Of a DNA stretch of 40,848 nt, positions 1-31,035 are shown one piece after another. The notes below the pieces were generated by a model that was given only the letters and a program-made list of their open reading frames with translations, had not been told where the DNA came from and made no database searches. The position numbers and the translations under genes are program-made. Position 1 is the first letter of the stretch. Every line of letters starts with the position of its first letter. This DNA comes from a virus (Duplodnaviria; Heunggongvirae; Uroviricota; Caudoviricetes), in the IMG/VR virus record IMGVR_UViG_2778261067_000009. The stretch is one strand, 5' to 3'.

Positions 1-327
1 ATGAAAAGAAACCTTCCGTTAATTATTTTGTTGTCTTCTCTGGTTATGGGCTGTACGCAACATAAAACAGATATGCCCCGACAGTTGGTTAAGGCATTAC
101 CACAATATCCGGCCTATGCAGCGGCAAATTATATAAAGGGACGGGTTGATGTGAAGTTTGATATTGGTGCTGATGGTACTGTCACCCGAATTGAGTTTAT
201 CCGTTCAGAGCCGCACCATTTGTTTGATGAGCAGGTTGTAAAGGCGATGGCAAAATGGCGATTTGAGAAGGACAGGCCGTGTAAAGGCGTGAAGAAAACG
301 TTTATCTTTAGTCCTTCTGCACCCTGA
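1..327 (+). CDS. Prophage-encoded lipoprotein with TonB C-terminal-like domain
   Basis: Signal peptide plus lipobox (LVMGC) at N-terminus; C-terminal part fits the TonB_C pattern (PxYP...G.V.V.F.I..DG.V....) as recalled; sits just upstream of cos like lambda bor-type morons. Confidence 0.6.
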   Translation: MKRNLPLIILLSSLVMGCTQHKTDMPRQLVKALPQYPAYAAANYIKGRVDVKFDIGADGTVTRIEFIRSEPHHLFDEQVVKAMAKWRFEKDRPCKGVKKTFIFSPSAP

Positions 328-458: not shown

Positions 459-659
459 TCATTTCTCGTTATTTTTCATGCTGGCCGGGCGCAGATGCGT
501 TGCATCTGTTGCCAGCCTTCTCCTGCAGGCTTCAATAACCCACGCTGAAAAGTTTCCTGAACCTTTCAGATCAAGAGCGATGTTAATTTGTTCAATCATC
601 TGGTTTGGAAATCGGATGTTGCGGGTTGTTGTTCTGCGGGTTCTGTTCTTTGATGACAT
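459..659 (-). CDS. ynfO: YlcI/YnfO family (DUF3950) small prophage protein
   Basis: 66 aa product MSSKNRTRRTTTRNIRFPNQMIEQINIAL...GSGNFSAWVIEACRRRL closely resembles E. coli prophage YnfO/YlcI proteins from memory. Confidence 0.6.
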   Translation of the reverse strand: MSSKNRTRRTTTRNIRFPNQMIEQINIALDLKGSGNFSAWVIEACRRRLATDATHLRPASMKNNEK

Positions 660-835
660 AATGTTTCCCCATATTCAGTGTTGCTGATTTGTATTATCTG
701 AAGTTGCTTTTACGTTAATTTGATGCAGATCAATCAATACGATACCTGCGTCATAATTGATTATTTCTCGTGGTTTGATGGCGTACACACATGTTGTGAT
801 AAACCTTATATAGATGATAATCATTATCATTTCGT

Positions 836-1015
836 GGGTCCTTTCCGGCGATCCGGGCCGTTACGGGGCGGCGACCTCGCGCGTTTTCGCTATTTATGAA
901 AATTTTCCGGGATCCATGTCCGGTTTCTCTTCAAGTTAACTATATGAAAAATATAAAAACAGGTCTTCTGTGAACCGGACATGAACAAAAAACAGACATG
1001 TAAACCGGACATGGC
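836..1015 (+). other. cos: Prophage cos site: cosQ-like GGGTCCTTTCCGG (836-848), cosN GGGCGGCGACCT (866-877), cosB with three CCGGACATG-type repeats (915-923 inverted, 975-983, 1005-1013)
   Basis: Near-identical to lambda cohesive-end sequence GGGCGGCGACCTCGCGGGTTTTCGCTATTTATGAAAATTTTCCGG; located immediately upstream of the Nu1 homologue as in lambda. Confidence 0.85.
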
Positions 1016-1060: not shown

Positions 1061-1570
1061 GTGGCTACGCAGACTGAAGTTGCCAGGCATTTAAGTCTGA
1101 CCGATCGCCAGCTTCGCAGATTGCAGAAATTGCCGGGTGCCCCGATATCGAATAAGCGAGGGCAACTGGATCTGGATGCCTGGCGCGATTTTTACATATC
1201 GTATCTGAGAAGAAGTAAAAACGATGTGCCTGATGGCGATAGCGAAGACGACTATGAGGAGAAATTGCTTATTGCCAGATGGGAACTGACAGCAGAACAA
1301 GCTGTTACACAGCAGTTAAAAAATGAGGTGTCAAAAGGAAAACTTATTGACACCGGGTTCTGTATTTTTGCCCTCAGCAAGCTGGCAATGGCGTTATCCA
1401 GTACGCTTGATTCCATCCCTTTATCCATGCAACGACAGTTTCCTGATTTAACACCGCGCCATCTTGACCATCTGAAAACCCTTATTGCGAAGGGGGCAAA
1501 TCAGTGTGCGCGGGCAGGGGATAAATTACCGGATTTACTCGATGAATATATCAGAGCAACAACTGAATAA
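1061..1570 (+). CDS. nu1: Terminase small subunit (lambda Nu1-like)
   Basis: N-terminal HTH region and C-terminal ...FCIFALSKLA...LDSIPLSMQRQFPDL... match lambda Nu1; probable GTG start with GGAGG just upstream; 3' end overlaps terminase large subunit start. Confidence 0.85.
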   Translation: MATQTEVARHLSLTDRQLRRLQKLPGAPISNKRGQLDLDAWRDFYISYLRRSKNDVPDGDSEDDYEEKLLIARWELTAEQAVTQQLKNEVSKGKLIDTGFCIFALSKLAMALSSTLDSIPLSMQRQFPDLTPRHLDHLKTLIAKGANQCARAGDKLPDLLDEYIRATTE

Positions 1571-5249: not shown

Positions 5250-6744
5250 TCTTTCACACATTATTGCCGCAGCATTCAATGAACCGCTGCTTCTGGAGCC
5301 CGCCTATGCGCGGGTTTTCTTTTGCGCGCTCGGGCGCGAGATGAGGGCAGCAAGTCTTTCGGTACCACAACAGCAGGTACAGCTTGATGCTCCCGGAATG
5401 CTGGCTGAAACGGATGAGTACATGGCCGGAGGTAAACGACCGGCCCGTGTTTACCGGGTGGTGAACGGTATTGCTGTACTGCCGGTGACCGGCACGCTGG
5501 TGCACCGGCTGGGTGGTATGCGGCCATTTTCCGGAATGACAGGCTATGACGGTATTGTCGCCTGTCTTCAGCAGGCAATGGCGGATAGCCAGGTGCAGGG
5601 CGTACTGCTGGACATTGACAGTCCGGGCGGGCAGGCCGCCGGCGCGTTTGACTGCGCTGACATGATTTACCGCCTCCGTCAGCAGAAGCCGGTCTGGGCA
5701 CTGTGCAATGACACGGCCTGTTCTGCAGCCATGCTGCTGGCGTCGGCCTGCTCCCGACGGCTGGTTACCCAGACATCCCGTATCGGCTCCATTGGCGTGA
5801 TGATGAGCCATGTCAGCTATGCCGGTCATCTGGCGCAGGCCGGTGTGGATATCACGCTGATTTATGCCGGGGCGCACAAGGTGGATGGCAATCAGTTTGA
5901 AGCGTTGCCGGCAGAGGTTCGCCAGGATATGCAGCAGCGGATTGATGCGGCGCACCGGATGTTTGCCGAAAAAGTGGCGATGTATACCGGGTTGTCTGTG
6001 GATGCGGTCACGGGAACAGAGGCCGCCGTTTTTGAAGGTCAGTCCGGCATTGAGGCCGGGCTGGCGGATGAATTAATCAATGCGTCGGATGCCATCAGTG
6101 TGATGGCCACGGCGCTGAACAGTAATGTCAGAGGAGGCACTATGCCGCAATTAACTGCAACGGAAGCCGCCGTGCAGGAGAACCAGCGAGTGATGGGGAT
6201 CCTGACATGCCAGGAAGCGAAAGGACGTGAACAGCTTGCCACGATGCTGGCAGGGCAACAGGGCATGAGCGTTGAACAGGCCCGGGCGATTCTGGCCGCG
6301 GCGGCACCGCAGCAGCCGGTGGCATCCGCGCAGAGTGAAGCCGATCGCATTATGGCGTGTGAAGAAGCGAACGGTCGTGAACAACTGGCGGCAACGCTGG
6401 CGGCGATGCCGGAGATGACGGTGGAAAAAGCCCGCCCGATCCTGGCGGCTGCACCACTGGCGGATGCCGGGCCCTCACTTCGTGATCAGATCATGGCCCT
6501 GGATGAGGCAAAAGGGGCAGAAGCGCAGGCTGAAAAACTGGCGGCCTGCCCGGGAATGACCGTGGAGAACGCCCGGGCTGTGCTGGCTGCGGGATCAGGT
6601 AAGGCCGAACCGGTCTCTGCATCCACAACCGCCCTGTTTGAACATTTCATGGCGAATCATTCACCGGCAGCGGTGCGGGGTGGCGTGTCACAGACGTCAG
6701 CAGACGGTGATGCGGACGTGAAAATGCTCATGGCCATGCCATGA
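5239..6744 (+). CDS. C: Head maturation protease / scaffold (lambda gpC with nested Nu3-like C-terminal domain), S49-type peptidase
   Basis: AFNEPLLLEPAYARVFFCAL and ClpP/S49-like core match lambda C; GTG start overlapping portal stop; C-terminal third carries scaffold-like repeats. Confidence 0.9.
   Translation: MRRNLSHIIAAAFNEPLLLEPAYARVFFCALGREMRAASLSVPQQQVQLDAPGMLAETDEYMAGGKRPARVYRVVNGIAVLPVTGTLVHRLGGMRPFSGMTGYDGIVACLQQAMADSQVQGVLLDIDSPGGQAAGAFDCADMIYRLRQQKPVWALCNDTACSAAMLLASACSRRLVTQTSRIGSIGVMMSHVSYAGHLAQAGVDITLIYAGAHKVDGNQFEALPAEVRQDMQQRIDAAHRMFAEKVAMYTGLSVDAVTGTEAAVFEGQSGIEAGLADELINASDAISVMATALNSNVRGGTMPQLTATEAAVQENQRVMGILTCQEAKGREQLATMLAGQQGMSVEQARAILAAAAPQQPVASAQSEADRIMACEEANGREQLAATLAAMPEMTVEKARPILAAAPLADAGPSLRDQIMALDEAKGAEAQAEKLAACPGMTVENARAVLAAGSGKAEPVSASTTALFEHFMANHSPAAVRGGVSQTSADGDADVKMLMAMP
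6187..6600 (+). repeat. Three diverged tandem in-frame repeats (~47-53 aa each) within the Nu3/scaffold part of gene C
   Basis: Protein repeats RVMGILTCQEAKGREQLATMLAGQQGMSVEQARAILAAAAP / RIMACEEANGREQLAATLAAMPEMTVEKARPILAAAP / QIMALDEAKGAEAQAEKLAACPGMTVENARAVLAAGSG; lambda has one such unit as recalled. Confidence 0.6.
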
Positions 6745-6780
6745 AGTCAGTGCTGACCATCAATATGAGGTTTTAACAAA

Positions 6781-7128
6781 ATGGTGACGAAAACCATCAC
6801 TGAACAGCGTGCGGAAGTACGTATTTTTGCTGGTAATGATCCGGCTCATACCGCCACAGGCAGCAGCGGGATTTCTTCTGCAACACCGGCTCTGACGCCC
6901 CTGATGCTGGATGAAGCCACCGGGAAACTGGTGGTCTGGGATGGACAGAAAGCCGGTAGTGCGGTTGGCATACTGGTACTGCCGCTTGAAGGCACAGAGA
7001 CGGTGCTGACCTATTACAAGTCGGGGACCTTTGCGACGGAGGCAATCCGCTGGCCTGACAGTGTGGATGAACACAAAAAGGCAAATGCCTTTGCCGGCAC
7101 AGCCCTGAGTCACGCGGCTCTGCCGTAA
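6781..7128 (+). CDS. D: Head decoration protein (lambda gpD-like)
   Basis: DPAHTAT...TPLMLDE...KLVVWDG...AVGIL...YKSGTF motifs match lambda D. Confidence 0.9.
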   Translation: MVTKTITEQRAEVRIFAGNDPAHTATGSSGISSATPALTPLMLDEATGKLVVWDGQKAGSAVGILVLPLEGTETVLTYYKSGTFATEAIRWPDSVDEHKKANAFAGTALSHAALP

Positions 7129-7185
7129 CACGTTATCAGGCCACCATGGTGGCCTGACTGATTTCTGAATGAAAGGAACTGATTT

Positions 7186-8214
7186 ATGGGATTGTTTACG
7201 ACCCGCCAGTTACTCGGTTATACCGAACAAAAAGTTAAATTCCGTGCGCTATTTCTGGAGCTGTTTTTCCGCCGTACGGTGAATTTCCACACCGAAGAGG
7301 TGATGCTGGACAAAATTACCGGAAAAACGCCGGTGGCGGCCTATGTCTCCCCGATCGTTGAAGGAAAAGTGCTGCGCCATCGTGGTGGTGAAACCCGCGT
7401 GTTGCGTCCGGGCTACGTCAAGCCGAAACACGAATTTAATTACCAGCAGGCGGTTGAGCGCCTTCCCGGTGAAGATCCGGCTCAGCTGAACGACCCGGCC
7501 TACCGTCGTCTGCGTATCATCACTGATAACCTCAAACAGGAAGAGCACGCTATTGTGCAGGTGGAAGAAATGCAGGCGGTGAATGCCGTGCTGTATGGCA
7601 AATATACGATGGAAGGAGACCAGTTCGAGAAAATTGAAGTCGATTTTGGCCGATCGACGAAGAATAACATCATACAAGGTAGCGGTAAGGAGTGGTCAAA
7701 ACAGGATCGTGACACGTTCGACCCGACATATGATATCGACCTTTTCTGTGATCAGGCCAGTGGTCTTGTGAATATTGCCATTATGGACGGTACCGTCTGG
7801 CGTCTGCTGAATGGCTTTAAGCTTTTCCGCGAAAAAATGGATACCCGTCGCGGTTCAAATTCACAACTCGAAACGGCAGTGAAAGATCTGGGCGCAGTGG
7901 TATCCTTCAAGGGGTATTACGGCGATCTGGCCATTGTGGTAGCGAAAACGTCTTATGTGGCAGAGGACGGTACCGAAAAACGTTATCTGCCGGAGGGCAC
8001 GCTGGTGCTGGGGAATACGGCAGCAGAGGGGATTCGTTGCTATGGAGCCATTAAGGATGCACAGGCGTTGTCTGAAGGAGTGGTGGCTTCTTCCCGTTAC
8101 CCGAAACACTGGCTGACCGTGGGCGATCCGTCCTGTGAATTCACCATGACGCAGTCCGCGCCGCTGATGGTGCTGCCGGATCCGGATGAGTTTGTGGTGG
8201 TACAGGTGAAATAA
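7186..8214 (+). CDS. E: Major capsid protein (lambda gpE-like)
   Basis: 342 aa; YVSPIV.G.V.R.RGG, PGYVKPKHE, EDPAQLNDPAYRR, LETAVKDLG, TMTQSAPLMVLPDPDEFV match lambda E. Confidence 0.95.
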   Translation: MGLFTTRQLLGYTEQKVKFRALFLELFFRRTVNFHTEEVMLDKITGKTPVAAYVSPIVEGKVLRHRGGETRVLRPGYVKPKHEFNYQQAVERLPGEDPAQLNDPAYRRLRIITDNLKQEEHAIVQVEEMQAVNAVLYGKYTMEGDQFEKIEVDFGRSTKNNIIQGSGKEWSKQDRDTFDPTYDIDLFCDQASGLVNIAIMDGTVWRLLNGFKLFREKMDTRRGSNSQLETAVKDLGAVVSFKGYYGDLAIVVAKTSYVAEDGTEKRYLPEGTLVLGNTAAEGIRCYGAIKDAQALSEGVVASSRYPKHWLTVGDPSCEFTMTQSAPLMVLPDPDEFVVVQVK

Positions 8215-8265
8215 TCCGTGAGCGGGGGCGAAATGCCCCCGTGTTTTTTTCACAGGGAGCTGGAT

Positions 8266-8634
8266 ATGGCAACAAAAGAAGAAAATCAGAAACGTCTTCG
8301 TGAACTGGCTGGTCTGCTGGGGCGCGAGGCGGATATGTCGGGGAGTGCTGCGGATATCGCACAGCGTGTGGCAGAGTGGGAAGAGGAGGTTTGCGCCTCG
8401 GAAAATGAAATCGCAGATGTTGATGATACCGTTCATGAGCAGGCATGCAGGCACACCGGTGAGGATGACGTTGGTATTCTGGAACGTATCAGGCTTCTGA
8501 AGTGTTTTTACCTGTGCGGTGTTGACGATAAAACAGGTGAGCCTGTTGAGCATGTTGATGCTGGCAGAGTAATTCTGATGCCCCCCTCAGTGGCAAAAGA
8601 CATGGTTAGGAGCGGAATGGCCGTTTATGCGTGA
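8266..8634 (+). CDS. FI: DNA packaging protein (lambda FI-like)
   Basis: Position between E and FII; start chosen at ATG 8266 preceded by AGGGAG; weak similarity to lambda FI only. Confidence 0.65.
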   Translation: MATKEENQKRLRELAGLLGREADMSGSAADIAQRVAEWEEEVCASENEIADVDDTVHEQACRHTGEDDVGILERIRLLKCFYLCGVDDKTGEPVEHVDAGRVILMPPSVAKDMVRSGMAVYA

Positions 8635-8980
8635 TTTTGAGAATTCCTTTGATGCTGCCCTTGCCGGGGTGGACAGAACGATTGTTGAAGTGATGGGGCT
8701 CTGTGCGCAGTTCACCTCGGGGGCACAGTGTGGCAGCGAAGTTCAGGGGGTTTTTGACGATCCGGAGTCGCTGGGGTTTGCCGGTAGCGGGGTCCGTATT
8801 GAAGGAAGCAGCCCGTCATTATTTGTGCGGACGGATACGGTTCGTGCCGTGCGGCGTGGTGACACGCTGACCATTAATGGTGAGACATTCTGGGTGGATC
8901 GTGTTTCTCCGGATGACGGGGGTAGCTGTTATCTCTGGCTCAACCGTGGGCAACCACCCGCAGTTAACCGGCGACGATAA
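8627..8980 (+). CDS. FII: Head completion protein (lambda FII-like)
   Basis: GVFDDPESLGFAGSGVRIEGSSPSLFVRTD...WVDRVSPDDGGSCYLWL...PPAVNRRR nearly identical to lambda FII. Confidence 0.9.
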   Translation: MRDFENSFDAALAGVDRTIVEVMGLCAQFTSGAQCGSEVQGVFDDPESLGFAGSGVRIEGSSPSLFVRTDTVRAVRRGDTLTINGETFWVDRVSPDDGGSCYLWLNRGQPPAVNRRR

Positions 8981-16683: not shown

Positions 16684-16714
16684 ACAGGCACCCTCCGGGG
16701 TGCCTGTTGTTTTT
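16684..16714 (+). terminator. Rho-independent terminator (10 bp GC-rich stem, 4 nt loop, T-run)
   Basis: ACAGGCACCC-TCCG-GGGTGCCTGT followed by TGTTTTT. Confidence 0.65.
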
Positions 16715-16757
16715 GGGCATAAACAGATTCAGACATCAGACAGGAGAGGGGGACAGA

Positions 16758-19700
16758 GTGGGTAAAGGGGGCGGCAAGGGGCACACACCGCGTGAGGCGA
16801 AGGACAATCTCAAGTCAACGCAGATGATGAGCGTGATTGATGCCATCGGTGAGGGACCGGTGGAAGGCCCGGTGAAGGGACTGCAGAGTATTCTGGTGAA
16901 CAAAACCCCCCTGACGGACACGGACGGTAATCCCGTGATACACGGTGTGACCGCCGTCTGGCGTGCCGGGGAGCAGGAGCAGACACCGCCGGAAGGCTTT
17001 GAGTCCTCCGGGGCGGAAACCGCACTGGGTGTGGAGGTGACGAAGGCAAAGCCGGTGACGCGCACCATCACGTCAGCGAACATTGACCGTCTGCGGGTCA
17101 CCTTCGGGGTGCAGTCACTGGTGGAGACCAGCTCAAAGGGTGACCGTAATCCCTCTTCTGTCCGGCTGCTGATTCAGCTTGAGCGTAACGGTAACTGGGT
17201 GACGGAGAAGGATGTCACTATTAACGGCAAGACCACCTCGCAGTACCTGACGTCGGTGATTCTGAATAATCTCCCTGAGCGCCCCTTTAACATCCGGGTG
17301 GTCAGGGTGACGGCGGACAGTACCACGGACCAGCTGCAGAACAGAACGCTGTGGTCGTCATACACCGAAATCATCGATGTGAAACAGTGCTACCCGAACA
17401 CGGCCATTGTGGGGCTGCAGGTGGATGCGGAGCAGTTCGGTGGCCAGCAGATGGTGGTGAACTACCATATCCGCGGCCGCATCATTCAGGTGCCGTCAAA
17501 CTATGACCCGGAAAAACGCACCTACAGCGGTATCTGGGACGGGAGTCTGAAACCGGCATACAGCAATAACCCGGCCTGGTGCCTGTGGGACATGCTGACC
17601 CACCCGCGCTACGGGATGGGAAAACGCCTGGGGGCCGCGGATGTGGACAAGTGGGCTCTGTATGCCATCGGGCAGTACTGCGACCAGACGGTTCCGGATG
17701 GTTTCGGGGGCACAGAGCCGCGGATGACCTTTAATGCGTACCTGTCACAGCAGCGTAAGGTGTGGGATGTCCTGGGGGATTTCTGCTCGGCGATGCGCTG
17801 TATGCCGGTATGGAACGGCCAGACGCTGACGTTCGTTCAGGACCGTCCGTCGGATGTGGTGTGGCCGTACACCAACAGCGATGTGGTGGTGGATGATAAC
17901 GGCGTGGGGTTCCGCTACAGCTTCAGTGCCCTGAAGGACCGGCACACGGCGGTGGAGGTGAATTACACCGACCCGCAGAACGGCTGGCAGACCTCCACTG
18001 AACTGGTGGAAGACCCGGACGCCATCCTGCGCTACGGGCGCAACCTGCTGAAGATGGATGCGTTCGGCTGTACCAGCCGCGGTCAGGCCCACCGTGCCGG
18101 ACTGTGGGTGATAAAGACCGAACTGCTGGAAACGCAGACGGTGGATTTCACGCTCGGGTCTCAGGGGCTGCGGCACACACCCGGTGACATCATTGAAATC
18201 TGTGATAACGACTATGCCGGGACCCTGACCGGCGGACGCATCCTGTCCATCGATGCCGCCAGCCGCACACTGACGCTGGACCGTGAGGTGACACTGCCGG
18301 AAGCAGGTACATCGACGGTGAACCTGATTAACGGCAGCGGTAAGCCGGTGCGCGTGGACATCACTGCACACCCCGCCCCTGACCGGATACAGGTCAGCGT
18401 CCTGCCTGATGGCGTGGCGACATACGGTGTGTGGGGACTCTCCCTGCCGTCACTGCGTCGTCGCCTGTTCCGCTGTGTTTCCATCCGGGAAAACACGGAC
18501 GGCACCTTTGCCATCACGGCGGTGCAGCATGTGCCGGAAAAAGAAGCCATTGTGGATAACGGGGCCCGCTTTGAGCCGATGTCCGGCTCACTGAACAGCG
18601 TCATCCCGCCGGCAGTGCAGCACCTCACGGTGGAGGTGAGTGCCTCAGACGGCCAGTATCTGGCGCTGGCGAAATGGGACACGCCGCGGGTGGTGAAGGG
18701 CGTGCGCTTCAGTCTGCGCCTGACCAGTGGCAGTGGTGAGAACAGCCGCCTGGTGACCAGCGCCATCACGGCGGACACGGAGTACCGTTTCAGTGGCCTG
18801 CCGCTCGGGGAATACACCCTGACGGTCAGGGCGATAAACAGCTACGGCCAGCAGGGCGAACCTGCCACCACCACATTCCGGATTAATGCACCGGCGGCAC
18901 CGGCCAGCATTGAACTGACGCCGGGCTATTTTCAGATAACGGTGGTCCCGCATCCTGCGGTGTATGACCCGACGGTACAGTATGAATTCTGGTTCTCAGA
19001 AAAACGCATCACGGACACGGCACAGGTGGAAACCTCTGCCCGTTATCTGGGTACCGGCAGCCAGTGGAGCGTCTCCGGCCCGCACATTAAGCCCGGGAAG
19101 GATTTCTGGTTTTATGTGCGCAGCGTCAACCTGGTGGGGAAATCTGCGTTTGTGGAGGCCAGCGGGCAGGCCAGCAATGATGGTGAAGGGTATCTGGAAA
19201 TTTTCCGTGGGCTGATAGATGAGGCGCTGCTGGGGAAGGCACTGAAAGAGCGTATTGATGCGTCAGCCCTGCGTACTGAGGTCACGCAACTGGAAGAAGA
19301 CATCCGCCAGCGACTGGAGACGGATGTTGCGGAAGTGACCCGAAAAATCGGGGAGGCGGAAAACAGCCTCACGCAGCTGGTTGCGAAAAAGAATGAGGAC
19401 CAGACGCTGGCCATCGCGCAGGTGAGTCAGCAGGTGGACCGGGTGAGCAGTGAAATCACACAGACCGTCAGCCAGAGCACGGAGGAAAACGCCAGGCAGA
19501 TAGCGCAGGTCCGCCAGTACGTGGATGACAAAGGGAGTGAAATCACCTCGACCACGGATAAAAAGCTGGAAGACCAGAGCGCCACCATACAGCAGATACA
19601 GCAGGTCCAGTCAGACACGAATGATGAGCTGGCAGCGCTGTACATGCTGAAGGTACAGAAAACGAAAAACGGCATTCCGTATGTTGCCGGTATTGGTGCG

Positions 19701-20444
19701 GGGATTGAGGATGCTGATGGCCAGACGCTGAGCAATATTCTGCTGCAGGCGGACCGTATTGCGATGATTACCCCGGAGAACGGCAACACCACGCCGCTGT
19801 TTGTGGCGCAGGGGAATCAGCTGTTTATGAACGACGTGTTCCTGAAGCGACTGTTTGCAGTGAGCATCACCTCGTCCGGCAATCCCCCGACGTTCTCCCT
19901 GACGCCGGAGGGCAGGCTGACGGCCCGCAATGCGGACATCAGCGGACATATCAGTGCGAACTCGGGCACGCTGAATAATGTCGTGATAGCGGAGAACTGC
20001 ACGATAAATGGCACGCTGAAAGCGGAGAACATTATTGGTGATCTGGTGAAATGTGCCGGGGTGGCTTTTCCGGTGGATGGTAGTCACCTTGCGAACGGTA
20101 CACTAACGCTGACGGTGTATGACGATCACAGCTTTGACCGGCAGATTATAATCCCGCCGATAATCTATGTCGGGTCAAAACAGGAATCCCGCACCAGTAA
20201 TGACATCTGGACAGAGTGCTTCCTGCATGTTGATCAGAACGGACGCCGGATTTATTCAGGCAGGTCAGTGGCAGAGCCGGGAATTTTCAGCGGGATCATC
20301 GATATGCCAGCTGGCGGTGGTCATATCACCCTGAGTTTTACCGTGAGCTCACGGCGTCAGAATAACAGTTGGGGCAGTTCACGTATCAGTAACCTTCAGG
20401 CGATAGTGGTGAAGAAAAACAGCGCGGGGATCAGCATCCGCTGA
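16758..20444 (+). CDS. J: Tail tip/central fibre protein J (host specificity)
   Basis: [22 protein letters not shown]...; long stretches match lambda J ([65 protein letters not shown]); GTG start 16758 with AGGAGAGG upstream. Confidence 0.95.
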
Positions 20445-20783: not shown

Positions 20784-20879
20784 GAAACCGTGGCGGAGGA
20801 GTGTACCTTTCCCGCCGACCGGTTGCTGAGGGTGATCAGCCGGATGGCACCTTTTTAACATCAATAAATCACAAATTTA

Positions 20880-20913
20880 CCGCAGGCCGGGAAACCGGTC
20901 CTGCGGTTTTTTT
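20880..20913 (+). terminator. Rho-independent terminator between hok-like gene and tail fibre gene
   Basis: CCGCAGGCCGGGAAACCGGTCCTGCGG followed by TTTTTTT. Confidence 0.65.
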
Positions 20914-20926
20914 ATGGAGGAAATCC

Positions 20927-22195
20927 ATGGCAGTCAGAATATCGGGTGTGCTGAAGGACGGGGCCGGTAAGCCGGTACCGGGATGCACGATAGAGCTGAA
21001 AGCGCGCCGCACAACGGAGACGGTGATTGTCACCACGGTGGCGTATGGTCAGCCGGGGGAAACCGGCAGTTACAGTATGGATGTTGAGCCGGGGTTGTAC
21101 CGGGTGACGCTGAACACGGAAGGGTACGCGCCGTCATATGTGGGTGACATTCTGGTGAAGGCGGAGTCTGCACCGGGAACGCTGAATAAATTTCTGATGG
21201 ACCTGGAGGACGCACAGTATTACCCGAAAGCCCTTGCAGAGCTGGAAGCGGTGGCCGCGGAAATCCTGAAACGTGCGGAAGCGTCAGCGGCGAGTGCAGA
21301 GGAAGCGAAGAAACGGGCAGAGAATGCGCGGGGACCGAAGGGTGATAAGGGAGACACGGGGCCACAGGGTATTCCCGGGCCAAAAGGCGATACCGGCGAG
21401 CGTGGGCCAAAGGGTGAGCGTGGTGAGGCAGGCCCACAGGGGGTACAGGGGCCACGGGGTGAAACCGGACCCGTGGGACCGCAAGGAGAGGCGGGTATTC
21501 AGGGGCCTGCTGGCCCTGCGGGCCCGCGGGGTGAAACCGGAGCCAGAGGCGAAAAAGGAGAGCCGGGAGATCCAGGAGGACCTCCGGGACCAAAAGGTGA
21601 CACTGGCCCCAGAGGGGAGCCGGGGCCTCAGGGCCCGGCAGGTCCGAGGGGACCTGCCGGAGAGAGAGGGCCGCAAGGATTGCAGGGTGTGGCAGGGGAG
21701 AGAGGCGATACAGGTCCGGCTGGTCCACAGGGTATACCTGGACCTCCGGGGCCAACAGGTAGCGTCGGTCCTAAGGGGGAAAAAGGCGAGCCTGGTGATC
21801 GAGGTCCACAGGGTGCTACCGGCCCCAGAGGACCACAAGGGGAAAAAGGGGATAAAGGTGACCCCGGCCCGGCAGGCCCTGCCGGTGAGCGGGGGCCGAA
21901 AGGTGATACCGGGCCGACGGGCCCCGCAGGGAAGGATGGCGCAGATTCACAGGCGAACAGAGTGCGTATCAGCGAGAAAACAGAAGTCACCTCCAGCACA
22001 GTCGTTTTCCCCTCTTTTTATGGCGGTGCGCATGGGGAAAATGCAGCCCCTGATGGCGCTGTGATTCTGAATATCAGGACGGCTCAGGTATCACTGACGA
22101 ACGGCAATTTAGGGGAAGCCTGTGTCACTGCTGTCACTTACGGCTTCCTTCAGGTTCACGATGGCAGCCAGTGGGTTACGGTGAAACATGAATAA
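20927..22195 (+). CDS. stf: Side tail fibre protein with collagen-like Gly-X-Y repeat shaft (lambda Stf-like N-terminus)
   Basis: N-terminus [28 protein letters not shown] matches lambda Stf [28 protein letters not shown]; ~200 aa of G-X-Y triplets; GGAGG RBS; start at 20927 inside the longer ORF. Confidence 0.85.
21332..21940 (+). repeat. Collagen-like Gly-X-Y triplet repeat region within the tail fibre gene (one single-residue interruption at GGPPGP)
   Basis: ~67 consecutive G-X-Y triplets rich in Pro/Lys/Glu; produces spurious long ORFs in other frames and on the opposite strand. Confidence 0.85.
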
Positions 22196-28448: not shown

Positions 28449-29699
28449 GTGATGACCGGAATCAAAATTATGAGCAGAGCACTTAACAAACTGAGCGATA
28501 CACAGCTGAGGAAAATCAACGGCACACCCGCCCAAAAAACAGCCTTTCTTAATGACGGTGGAAACCTGAGCGTCAGGCATTCAACCAGTGGCCTTTTAAC
28601 CTGGTATTTCACTTACAGGGCCGGAACGGGAAGGGGGGCACCACCGGAACGCATTAAGCTGGGAAATTATCCTGATCTGAGCCTGAAATCAGCCAGGGAA
28701 AAAGCCGCCCAGTGTCGCGCATGGCTGGCAGAGGGGAAAAATCCACGTCATGAGCTTAATTACACCGTACAGGAAGCGTTAAAGCCGGTAACGGTTGGCG
28801 ATGCGCTCACCTACTGGCTTGAGTCGTACGCAAAGGAAAACCGCGTGGATTATGCCGCCCTGAAAAAGCGCCTTAATAATCACGTAATACAGCACATTGG
28901 TGCTATGCCGCTGGATAAATGCGAGCTACGGCACTGGCTGGCCTGTTTTGACCAGGTGGCAAAGCGAACGCCTGTTACTGCCGGATTCTTGCTACAGACG
29001 TGCAAACAGGCGCTTAAGTTCTGCCGGAGGCGGCGCTATGCAATCAGCAACGTTCTTGATGATATGAGTGTGGCGGACGTTGGGAAAAAACCGGATATAA
29101 GCGAGCGTGTCTTAAGCACCAAAGAACTGGGCGAATTATTGCAGGCACTGGACAAAAAAATATTCTCCCCCTACTACATCGCGTTAATCCGCCTCCTGAT
29201 TGTGTTCGGATGCCGGACGGTAGAACTGAGGTTATCGGAGATCAGCGAGTGGGATTTTACCGAAATGCTCTGGACCGTGCCGAAAGAACACAGCAAAACG
29301 AAGGTGGCAATATTCCGGCCCATACCGGAAGCAATACTGCCGTTCGTCACGCAGCTGGTGGAGCAGAACAGGCACACGGGCTTATTGCTGGGGGAAGTGA
29401 AACAGGAAACAAGCGTGTCGCAGTACGGCAGATTAGCGCACAGGAGGCTAAATCACCCTCACTGGTCACTACATGACATCCGGCGCACCTTTACAACGAT
29501 GCTGAGCGATTTAGGCGTGGATCCTCACGTCGTGGAGCAGCTTACAGGCCACCAGATGCCAGGAATGCAGCGAGTTTATAATCATTCCCGTTATCTGGAT
29601 GCTAAACGCAATGCGCTGGATATGTGGATGGAGCGGTTAGGGATACTGGCGGGAACACATGAAAACGTAACCGCACTACCAGCAGCCAGAAGAAAATAA
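28449..29699 (+). CDS. int: Tyrosine-type site-specific integrase (P4/CP4-57-like family)
   Basis: 416 aa; C-terminal catalytic region with ...HDIRRTFTTMLSDLGVDPHVVEQLTGHQ...VYNHSRY; abuts the left repeat; true start may be the internal Met at 28470. Confidence 0.9.
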   Translation: MMTGIKIMSRALNKLSDTQLRKINGTPAQKTAFLNDGGNLSVRHSTSGLLTWYFTYRAGTGRGAPPERIKLGNYPDLSLKSAREKAAQCRAWLAEGKNPRHELNYTVQEALKPVTVGDALTYWLESYAKENRVDYAALKKRLNNHVIQHIGAMPLDKCELRHWLACFDQVAKRTPVTAGFLLQTCKQALKFCRRRRYAISNVLDDMSVADVGKKPDISERVLSTKELGELLQALDKKIFSPYYIALIRLLIVFGCRTVELRLSEISEWDFTEMLWTVPKEHSKTKVAIFRPIPEAILPFVTQLVEQNRHTGLLLGEVKQETSVSQYGRLAHRRLNHPHWSLHDIRRTFTTMLSDLGVDPHVVEQLTGHQMPGMQRVYNHSRYLDAKRNALDMWMERLGILAGTHENVTALPAARRK

Positions 29700-30064
29700 T
29701 TTTTTTCGTGTTTTTTCAGTATGCGCATACTGGATAAGCACACAGATACAACGGCGAACAATGTGAAACAACGTGGAACAACCACGAACAAGAGGCGAAA
29801 AAGTACACAGGTTTATAAGTGACTGATTTTATTTGTGTGACTGTTTTTTTATACATTAGCGAATAACGCTTTAACGCGTGAGAAAAAAGGCATGAAACAA
29901 TATTTTATGCCTTTGTATTAACATGAATTTAAAAGATTTTATTCTTACTGTTTCATTTTCTGTAAATCATACATCCTCAATATTTGCCATTCATCACTCT
30001 AGCGGGAACAATACGACACAATAAGACACCTGATGACTCTTTAAGAAACGAAAGGGGGGCAATA

Positions 30065-30253
30065 GTGTTAAGCACTGATCGGTTTATACGTGAAAAAGAA
30101 TGCGAAAAACTAACCGGCCTTAGCCGTACGTGTCGCTACCGCCTGGAAAAGGCCGGACAATTCCCATCACGTCGTAAACTTGGCGGTCGTTCCGTTGGCT
30201 GGTCTTTATCCGAGGTTCTGGCCTGGAAGGATAGCTGCAAGGCAGTTCATTAA
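30065..30253 (+). CDS. alpA: AlpA-family transcriptional regulator/excisionase-like protein
   Basis: 62 aa HTH protein ...LTGLSRTCRYRLEKAGQFPSRRKLGGRSVGWSLSEVLAW... typical of AlpA; GTG start 30065 with AAAGGGGGG RBS. Confidence 0.75.
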   Translation: MLSTDRFIREKECEKLTGLSRTCRYRLEKAGQFPSRRKLGGRSVGWSLSEVLAWKDSCKAVH

Positions 30254-30522
30254 TCACGCTGGCGGCACGCAGCCGCCACACATCAATCATCTGAACACAG
30301 AGCTATAACCATGAAGATTGAATATACGCCAGAACGTGGGCGGGGATTCGTTCGCCCTGGTGAAACTGAAAAACAACAAAATTGGGGTTTTTCAGACATA
30401 AAAAAAGCGGCCCCGAAATGGAGCCGCCTTTCTGAACAGATAACCCGCTGCGCCGTTTGTGTGTGTGATCCCAAACATAAGAACGGCAATGATAGTCGCT
30501 ATCAGGCTGGTGGGCAATGCTA

Positions 30523-30711
30523 TCAGTCTGGTTCAGTTCGTTGCCATACCTGCAATGAGCGCTTTTCCCTGTACTCTTTAAGGAATTGCTCAAGGGCAAA
30601 AGCACATGGCGCGAATCTTTCTGATTCATGCTCTATCTTTCTGCGCCGTCTTTTCCGTGCCGGTGATAATGTTTTGGTCAATTCTTTATCGGTCATTGTG
30701 TTGTCCTGCAT
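30523..30711 (-). CDS. Hypothetical small basic protein (62 aa)
   Basis: ORF downstream of the RHH gene on the - strand; no convincing RBS; KRRRRK basic patch; could be spurious. Confidence 0.25.
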   Translation of the reverse strand: MQDNTMTDKELTKTLSPARKRRRRKIEHESERFAPCAFALEQFLKEYREKRSLQVWQRTEPD

Positions 30712-30753
30712 AGCAATGCGCCGTAATACCTTACACCACGGCGCTGATGGTGA

Positions 30754-30933
30754 TTACTCTGGTTCTTTGGCCTTGCGCCGCTGGCGATATTCAACTTCTC
30801 GTTTTAATGCTGCAGTAACAAATTGCCCCGTACTTTCGCCAGGCATTTTTACCGCCTCAACATTGTTCATAACTTCATGCGGAACCCTTGCCGCAACGGT
30901 TTGTGATTTTGCGTTTACTGCTTTTGTCGCCAT
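30754..30933 (-). CDS. Small ribbon-helix-helix-like DNA-binding protein (59 aa), candidate island repressor
   Basis: MATKAVNAKSQTVAARVPHEVMNNVEAVKMPGESTGQFVTAALKREVEYRQRRKAKEPE; beta-strand then two-helix pattern typical of Arc/MetJ/CopG RHH; GAGGGG RBS; divergent from the operator/promoter region; below the 60 aa cut-off of the supplied ORF track. Confidence 0.45.
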   Translation of the reverse strand: MATKAVNAKSQTVAARVPHEVMNNVEAVKMPGESTGQFVTAALKREVEYRQRRKAKEPE

Positions 30934-30983
30934 GTGGTGTACCCCTCATAAAAAACAAATGCAGTATGCAGGAAAAAAAACAA

Positions 30984-31035
30984 GTGTTCAACACTTGACG
31001 TGTTTAACACCTGGGTTTAAATTGGTGTTCAACAC
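30984..31035. promoter_or_regulatory. Operator/promoter region: three copies of the 11 bp palindrome GTGTT(C/T)AACAC overlapping a TTGACG -35 and TTTAAAT -10 candidate
   Basis: Palindromes at 30984-30994, 31000-31010, 31025-31035; lies between the divergent RHH gene and the icd-like operon. Confidence 0.5.

Follow-up and report, generated by a model that had tools for sequence, protein, structure and literature searches.

Why would a prophage carry, beside its cos site, a gene for a lipoprotein whose mature part looks like the C-terminal domain of TonB? The gene fills the first 327 bases of a 40,848-nucleotide stretch of Caudoviricetes DNA (IMG/VR virus record IMGVR_UViG_2778261067_000009); we refer to the whole stretch as the window and to the product as the TonB_C lipoprotein. 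Our answer is tentative. We regard it as possible, though short of probable, that the gene is a prophage moron whose product copies the C-terminal domain of TonB, is anchored in the outer membrane without coupling to an energy source, and competes with TonB for TonB boxes.

A lipoprotein with the fold of the TonB C-terminal domain

The mature part of the protein is related to TonB in both sequence and predicted structure. Pfam PF03544 (TonB_C) scores 54.9 bits against the 108-residue protein (cut-off 24.6; E = 1.3e-14) and TIGR01352 scores 54.6 bits (cut-off 27.1), and a phmmer search of the PDB returned the C-terminal domains of E. coli and Salmonella TonB (E ~4e-16). Residues 26–104 align gaplessly to E. 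coli TonB 153–231, and the identity is 36% over 85 positions. The TonB residues kept are P161, Q162, Y163 and P164 (the YP motif), F180, G186, F202, W213, Y215 (as Phe) and F230. The C-terminus is equivalent to TonB residue 235, the last four TonB residues being gone, and the protein covers TonB 153–235. This is very nearly the same stretch as the fragment 158–235 that is ordered in the FhuA co-crystal, where the three-stranded sheet of TonB is joined by the transporter's TonB box (PMC2533080). The last strand of the lipoprotein (94–103) is the counterpart of the one through which TonB pairs with a TonB box (PMC2533080).

We modelled the protein with AlphaFold2 (AF2), using a six-sequence alignment as input. 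The predicted local distance difference test score (pLDDT) exceeds 90 over residues 31–105, which form helices at 38–42 and 76–84 and strands at 47–55, 61–70 and 94–103. The best Foldseek matches are 2gsk_B, TonB bound to BtuB (root-mean-square deviation 1.0 Å, TMt 0.89), and 2grx_C, TonB bound to FhuA (1.2 Å, TMt 0.93), and the Foldseek probability is 1.00 for these two and for 1u07. In BFVD, no further viral protein of the same fold turned up at E <= 0.001.

The N-terminus, MKRNLPLIILLSSLVMGC followed by TQ, matches the PROSITE-type lipobox pattern with Cys18 as the predicted lipidated residue. The pattern comprises a positive n-region, a hydrophobic core, a lipobox of the form [LVI..][..][AGS]C and a cysteine at 15–35; in the window protein the n-region is basic (K2, R3), the core reads LPLIILLSSLV and the lipobox is VMGC. 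It is satisfied by 15 of 16 family members, and Cys18 is invariant across an 11-member alignment whose members share 34–72% identity. The spacing from this cysteine to the PxYP motif is 15–16 residues in the close family. No hydrophobic segment was found in the mature protein, in which the highest 19-residue Kyte-Doolittle mean is 0.47. At the +2 position the window protein has Thr and its relatives have Ser, Ala or Thr, with Asp in none of the 15 lipobox-bearing members. Because the +2 residue is Thr and not Asp, the protein is expected to be sorted by Lol to the outer membrane.

A preliminary description of this DNA had read the product as a lipoprotein with a signal peptide and a lipobox cysteine, and its mature part as TonB C-terminal-like. 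Both readings hold: VMGC with Cys18 fits the pattern, and the Pfam, TIGR, PDB and AF2 matches all agree. The structure-prediction check against the TonB C-terminal domain that it had suggested points the same way, as the AF2 model lies 1.0–1.2 Å from receptor-bound TonB in Foldseek.

For the surveys of viral DNA below we used 80 IMG/VR contigs that carry the window allele, 70 of which have enough flank for checks of open reading frames (ORFs). Residue 94 (window 280–282) is polymorphic among these 70, being Cys in 41 and Arg in 29. Apart from Cys18, the predicted lipidation site, the Cys94 form carries a single unpaired cysteine on the periplasmic side.

The protein is neither a TonB energy transducer nor a spanin

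We rejected the possibility that the protein is itself a TonB energy transducer. The membrane anchor and the proline-rich rod are missing, and residues 1–18 form a cleavable lipoprotein signal. Against the TonB equivalog group (NCBIfam PRK10819) the best score of the protein is 74.2 bits, where NF008084 requires 315, and its matches span only the last ~85 profile positions. The spacer between Cys18 and the first TonB-homologous residue is only seven residues long, and the protein has 108 residues versus 239 in TonB. Identity to the family of short lipoproteins is 34–49%, compared with 36% to E. coli TonB. Because it is closer to the short lipoproteins than to TonB, the protein is, judged by these identities, a paralogue of long standing and did not break off from host tonB recently.

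A second label that could mislead is 'Rz-like spanin' (lysis category), the name given to PHROG 1267, with which the protein aligns from end to end (E = 7.7e-43). We rejected a spanin identity as well. A complete Rz with an embedded Rz1 is already present upstream in relatives (8195–8662 and 8415–8600 in relative L001), and phage 21 is annotated with both an i-spanin and an o-spanin. An o-spanin is a small lipoprotein encoded within or next to the gene of its i-spanin partner, whereas the TonB_C gene lies ~340 bp downstream of Rz/Rz1 and encodes a TonB_C domain. The TonB_C lipoprotein also lacks a C-terminal transmembrane segment and is therefore not a unimolecular spanin. The PHROG label seems to have been given to these TonB_C lipoproteins by position, since they follow the lysis cassette, and to be mistaken.

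The gene travels in a mosaic module between the lysis cassette and cos

The preliminary description had placed the gene beside cos, and the sequence bears this out: an exact copy of the lambda cosN 12-mer begins 539 bp after the stop codon, with only a small convergent YlcI/YnfO gene between (Table 1). Window positions 525–910 share ~88% identity with the cos regions found in lambda-type phages, and lambda-like head and tail genes come after terS. The first base of the window is the A of the ATG; what lies upstream of the gene is therefore missing and has to be read from relatives. Near-identical prophages, such as the Shiga toxin (Stx) 1a prophage of E. coli ARS-C301, carry in sequence Q, stx1AB, holin, lysozyme and Rz/Rz1, then 340 bp, the TonB_C gene, ylcI on the minus strand, cos and terS. 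The ARS-C301 prophage is identical to the window as far as base 2557, after which the two diverge. The window does not come from ARS-C301, an assignment that we rejected on the divergence past 2557 and on the host junction, since the window prophage adjoins potB and not yecD. The TonB_C gene thus lies between the lysis cassette, which is off the left edge of the window, and cosN.

What the slot between Rz and cos carries varies among relatives, the cargo being bor/iss, KilA-N or the TonB_C gene, and the same lysis-to-terminase slot holds distant members of the family in a Klebsiella phage and a Sodalis prophage. In phage JLK-2012 the packaging and head genes that follow the TonB_C and ylcI pair are of another kind (HNH/terS/terL type). 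Carriers thus differ in their virion modules, those of the window's E. coli prophage being lambda-like, from which it follows that what the lipoprotein does is independent of the tail of the phage that carries it. The conserved block starts just after the Rz stop in 48 of the 80 contigs and ends just past ylcI in 57 of them, and we conclude that the TonB_C gene and ylcI travel together as a mosaic module of ~1 kb with edges at gene borders. The YlcI/YnfO gene is present in 68 of the 70 contigs with sufficient flank. A PDB search with its product gave no sequence match; by eye, the sequence (IRFPNQMIEQINIAL...NFSAWVIEACRRRL) suggests a DNA-binding protein of the ribbon-helix-helix type, an unconfirmed impression.

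Selection, expression and distribution

Between the window and phage-21 alleles dN/dS is 0.13, with dS saturated at 1.37, and the low ratio indicates that the protein is under purifying selection. By part, the ratio is 0.10 for the domain, 0.16 for the tether and 0.21 for the signal peptide. The 108-residue ORF is intact in all 70 usable viral contigs, and some metagenomic variants have frameshifted C-termini without the last strand.

Expression was approached through the upstream DNA of relatives and through a published transcriptome. A sigma-70-like site with an extended -10 element lies 32 bp ahead of the ATG in relatives, and its extended -10-like core, TGT(T/C)AGAAT, is shared by both of the otherwise diverged alleles. 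The homologue LF82_160 of prophage Perceval, which is the 72%-identical allele and not the window allele, is transcribed 8-fold above prophage background in the LF82 lysogen (PMC9928086, Table 1). On the strength of this homologue, we count the family as a moron that is probably expressed in lysogeny. Late-operon read-through probably occurs as well, because the gene lies on the same strand as the late operon and no terminator-like hairpin was found around it (folding of 310–470 is no better than that of shuffled sequences, z 0.26). Further morons that Perceval expresses in lysogeny encode NmpC, a porin, and SitABCD, which imports Fe/Mn (PMC9928086, Table 1); as TonB-independent routes these could offset a block of TonB, in this single example. 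The preliminary description had proposed the gene as a candidate for lysogenic conversion. Its standing as a moron and candidate conversion gene gains support from the variable slot, the mosaic module, the purifying selection and the transcribed homologue.

A perfect 17-bp palindrome, AGAATAAG-A-CTTATTCT (8962–8978 in L001), overlaps the -10-like element and is present in 65 of the 70 contigs. The phage-21 allele has only the first half of this palindrome and no ylcI. It is possible that the palindrome serves as a putative operator for a regulator encoded in the module. Regulation by Fur was rejected, as the best upstream match to a Fur box is an unconvincing 13/19.

The gene is common. Of 5426 complete E. 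coli genomes, 415 carry the window allele ('TonB family protein', WP_000828068.1 in RefSeq) and 1225, including the type strain ATCC 11775, a 72%-identical allele; in genomes of the latter type the gene is placed after iss/bor. The second allele is known as CPT_21_73 'TonB C-terminal domain protein' in the lambdoid phage 21, as LF82_160 'TonB fragment' in Perceval and as 'TonB family protein' WP_000830178 in RefSeq, and the labels 'TonB fragment' or 'partial tonB-like' are found in phages Perceval and ev017 and in CP-933N. It resembles the window allele in length, lipobox and position between the lysis genes and cos (after bor/iss), and differs in having other flanks, no downstream YlcI/YnfO gene and only half of the palindrome. 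Stx1a-converting prophages carry the window allele; the carriers of the phage-21 allele are mostly not of the Stx type. The TonB_C lipoprotein is thus already known as an annotated object (RefSeq, phage 21, Perceval); in the literature searched we found no paper noting its lipoprotein anchoring.

More distant relatives were located with a five-sequence alignment, the broad 11-sequence alignment being too divergent for a family locus search. The short TonB_C lipoproteins encoded on the chromosomes of Raoultella, Klebsiella, Erwinia and Sodalis (P0037, P0035 and P0040 among them) have 107–133 residues and 41–50% identity by tblastn, and share with the window protein the lipobox, the spacer of ~15 residues, the TonB_C domain and the motifs SEPxHLFD and KWRFE..KP.KGM.KT. 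They differ in that several lie outside recognisable prophages, beside lacZ-like, LacI-family and DUF1440 genes. In Raoultella a gene for a DUF1440 membrane protein (6738–7301 in locus L006) adjoins the chromosomal TonB_C lipoprotein gene, and in Klebsiella phage ST13-OXA48phi12.4 a DUF1440 gene (1277–1903 in locus L005) lies ~3 kb upstream of that phage's TonB_C lipoprotein gene. This pairing may be a trace of co-capture from the chromosome.

A proposed decoy for TonB boxes

We infer an outer-membrane location, binding to TonB boxes, competition with TonB and a resulting phenotype, and the proposed sequence of events would be as follows. Cleavage by signal peptidase II would yield a 91-residue mature protein hung from the inner leaflet of the outer membrane by a seven-residue tether. 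Such anchoring would place it beside the periplasmic face of TonB-dependent transporters, and the short tether would give a high local concentration there. With the three-stranded sheet and the YP motif retained, the domain could pair with TonB boxes as TonB does, whether those of FhuA, FepA, Cir and BtuB or those of incoming group-B colicins. The boxes would then most likely be occupied with no transmission of force, because the ExbB/ExbD-coupled anchor and the proline-rich rod are absent, and the lipoprotein would compete with the scarce cellular TonB. One would expect TonB-dependent phages (T1, phi80, H8), colicins and microcins to enter less readily, and the predicted role is exclusion or bacteriocin tolerance expressed by the lysogen.

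The relation to E. coli TonB itself (~150–239; 2GRX, 2GSK, 1U07) has two sides: the homology is gapless and the fold, YP motif, aromatic residues and glycine are the same, whereas the lipoprotein has a predicted outer-membrane lipid anchor and neither the ExbB/ExbD anchor nor the proline-rich rod. Interference with TonB-dependent receptors, by a logic like that of Cor/Llp-type lipoproteins, is also what the preliminary description proposed as a possible mechanism. A precedent for such uncoupling exists in engineered form. Overexpressing TonB's periplasmic domain inhibited iron import via TonB-dependent transporters (Howard, Herrmann, Stratilo & Braun 2001, as cited in PMC9841981), and the same source relates that a TonB-box pentapeptide lowers colicin killing and phi80 infection. 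The decoy idea is plausible because engineered periplasmic fragments, which are likewise uncoupled from ExbB/ExbD, inhibit TonB-dependent uptake. Those fragments were artificial, soluble and overexpressed, whereas the TonB_C lipoprotein is natural, far shorter and, by prediction, tethered to the outer membrane by lipid.

A further comparison comes from the phages. Cor (phi80, N15, HK022) and Llp (T5) are small phage outer-membrane lipoproteins that act periplasmically on the TonB-dependent transporter FhuA (PMC11436027). They are receptor-specific, whereas a mimic of the TonB domain would be generic for proteins that bear a TonB box. Pfam and PHROG searches with the TonB_C lipoprotein gave only TonB_C-type families, no direct comparison with Cor or Llp being made. 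If true, the decoy would be a new variant of receptor-blocking exclusion lipoproteins, generic unlike Cor and Llp. With somewhat more reserve than the decoy itself, we suggest that it could act as a generic, receptor-independent device for exclusion or immunity that caps TonB boxes from the periplasm, with the YlcI/YnfO protein and the palindrome perhaps forming its control circuit.

Several observations weigh against a TonB decoy. TonB residues R158, Q160 and R166 are replaced by Lys, Leu and Tyr in the lipoprotein. Two of these, Q160 and R166, are implicated in receptor contact, R166 with the plug of FhuA. The side chains of the last strand read KKTFIF, compared with VVNILF in TonB. The family has conserved motifs of its own (SEPxHLFD, Y39 and KP.KGM.KT) with no counterpart in TonB, and a different partner is therefore possible. 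The relatives in Raoultella, Klebsiella sp. R390 and Erwinia sit in apparently non-prophage chromosomal contexts and therefore hint at a cellular role unrelated to phage exclusion. A general block of TonB should cost the cell iron and B12 acquisition, yet both alleles are widespread. Phage 21 lysogens are not known to be tolerant of T1, phi80 or colicins. PADLOC gave no meaningful match to a known defence system, and the literature searched yielded no functional study of the protein. One of the substitutions has a parallel in TonB genetics: Q160L is a suppressor allele for TonB-box mutants (PMC2533080), and the window protein has Leu at this position. We do not weight this match heavily because the phage-21 allele has Tyr there.

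Alternative functions

The strongest competitor, which we nevertheless consider unlikely, is a host-fitness outer-membrane lipoprotein whose partner is something other than a TonB box (peptidoglycan, a periplasmic binding protein or another envelope component), and which brings about a Bor/Iss-like conversion in the form of envelope robustness or resistance to serum or stress. Bor and Iss are likewise small, lysogen-expressed outer-membrane lipoproteins encoded between Rz and cos, adjacent to the TonB_C gene in phage 21 and directly linked to it, as iss, in prophages of the type found in extraintestinal pathogenic E. coli (ExPEC). They differ from it in being unrelated in sequence and fold and in lying on the opposite strand. 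The motifs peculiar to the family, the non-prophage relatives in Raoultella, Klebsiella and Erwinia and the expression of the homologue in a lysogen all suit this explanation, as does the ability of TonB-like C-terminal domains to bind other proteins, for example FusB with ferredoxin (9hi3 is among the fold matches). No result points to a specific partner, however, and the closest structural matches are receptor-bound conformers of TonB, with the YP motif and the aromatic core kept.

A late-lytic function, with the gene read through from the late operon and its product active at or after lysis, either as a block to productive adsorption of progeny or competitor phages on infected cells and debris in the manner of T5 Llp or in an accessory role in lysis or with the spanins, strikes us as decidedly unlikely. 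The gene does follow directly after holin, endolysin and Rz/Rz1 on the same strand in prophages of E. coli, Klebsiella and Sodalis, there is no terminator-like hairpin around it, and the spanin-labelled PHROG 1267 matches it over its full length. Against this, the Rz and embedded Rz1 pair upstream in relatives is complete, the lipoprotein has no C-terminal transmembrane segment, its homologue is expressed in the lysogenic state, relatives exist on chromosomes outside prophages, and carriers differ in tail and receptor type.

We hold it improbable that the protein modulates iron uptake or regulation, such that throttled TonB uptake or signalling would shift the Fur regulon, including the Fur-repressed stx1, while iron enters by TonB-independent routes. 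The presence of the window allele in Stx1a-converting prophages, the expression of the Perceval homologue together with SitABCD and NmpC, and the palindrome over the -10-like element in 65 of 70 contigs would fit, but the best upstream Fur-box match is just 13/19, the second half of the palindrome is missing in the phage-21 allele, most carriers of that allele are not Stx phages, and the explanation depends on the same predicted binding to TonB boxes as the decoy.

A non-functional leftover of the 3' end of a captured host tonB, as the labels in Perceval, ev017 and CP-933N imply and the frameshifted metagenomic variants lacking the last strand might suggest, is largely refuted and very improbable in view of the dN/dS of 0.13 at saturated dS, the dedicated lipoprotein signal conserved across genera, the identity of 44–49% to short lipoproteins against 36% to TonB (an old paralogue), the ORF intact in 70 of 70 viral contigs and the transcription of the homologue in a lysogen.

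Other features of the window

Between roxA and phoQ, at window 28449–39000, lies a second integrated element that looks like a phage satellite of the phage-inducible chromosomal island (PICI) type. Its gene for a single-stranded DNA-binding protein was assigned by analogy with L022, an annotated locus of E. coli 99-3311, and no large terminase, portal or tail gene was found among the ORFs scanned in the element. It contains two lambda-type cos segments, 37532–37595 on the plus strand and 38394–38448 on the minus strand, which match the cos of the prophage (836–912) at 89% and 87% identity and are inverted relative to each other on either side of the Nu1-like terS. Both contain the exact cosN 12-mer (37562–37573, plus; 38429–38440, minus). 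Two lambda-type cos copies with exact cosN suggest that the satellite relies for packaging on lambda-type helpers, of which the neighbouring prophage would be one.

The 299-residue C-terminus of the J tail-tip protein is 95.7% identical to that of Stx phage 1720a-02 and at most 68% identical to other phage records. As only 1720a-02 matches closely, the receptor of the prophage is not inferable from the characterised lambdoid types. Some relatives have an Ail/Lom outer-membrane protein at the position of the Hok/Gef-family toxin.

Table 1. Coordinates of the TonB_C lipoprotein gene and of other features named in the text, numbered from the first base of the window.
Feature	Position	Strand	Remarks
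TonB_C lipoprotein, coding sequence, 108 residues	1–327	+	ATG to TGA (stop 325–327); identical protein is WP_000828068.1 'TonB family protein'
Predicted signal peptide with lipobox V-M-G-C	1–54	+	Cys18 codon 52–54; +2 residue Thr; pattern check
Short tether, T19–M25	55–75	+	Predicted acylated Cys to P26 (TonB P153); AF2 pLDDT <50 at residues 20–23
TonB C-terminal domain, residues 26–104	76–312	+	Helix-strand-strand-helix-strand; YP motif Y36-P37; last strand 94–103
YlcI/YnfO-family gene (DUF3950), 66 residues	459–659	-	Convergent; Pfam
cosN	866–877	+	GGGCGGCGACCT; identical to the lambda cohesive-end 12-mer (exact match)
terS, Nu1-type small terminase subunit	1061–1570	+	Start of the packaging/head module
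J tail-tip gene	16707–20444		C-terminal 299 residues, 19545–20441
Hok/Gef-family toxin ORF, 46 residues	20643–20783	+	Pfam PF01848; directly after tail-tip gene J
Side tail-fibre protein	20801–22195	+	Long collagen-like Gly-X-Y repeat region
Satellite integrase	28449–29699		
Satellite AAA_25/RepA-type helicase	32321–33721		
Satellite capsid E-like	35672–36727		
Satellite decoration D-like	36739–37074		
Satellite Nu1-like terS	37707–38249		

Implications

TonB-dependent transporters are a major entry for phages, colicins, microcins and siderophore-antibiotic conjugates. If the TonB_C lipoprotein does act as a decoy for TonB boxes, a generic mechanism based on mimicry would join the receptor-specific exclusion lipoproteins. 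It could explain strain differences in sensitivity to colicins, microcins and phages and in iron physiology among Shiga toxin-producing, extraintestinal pathogenic and adherent-invasive E. coli (STEC, ExPEC and AIEC), it could affect how susceptible cells are to siderophore drugs of the Trojan-horse kind, and the protein could be of use as a tool, being a minimal natural binder of TonB boxes. Should the decoy fail, E. coli prophages would still carry a very common lipoprotein, under selection and expressed, as its homologue is, in lysogens, for which a function would have to be found.

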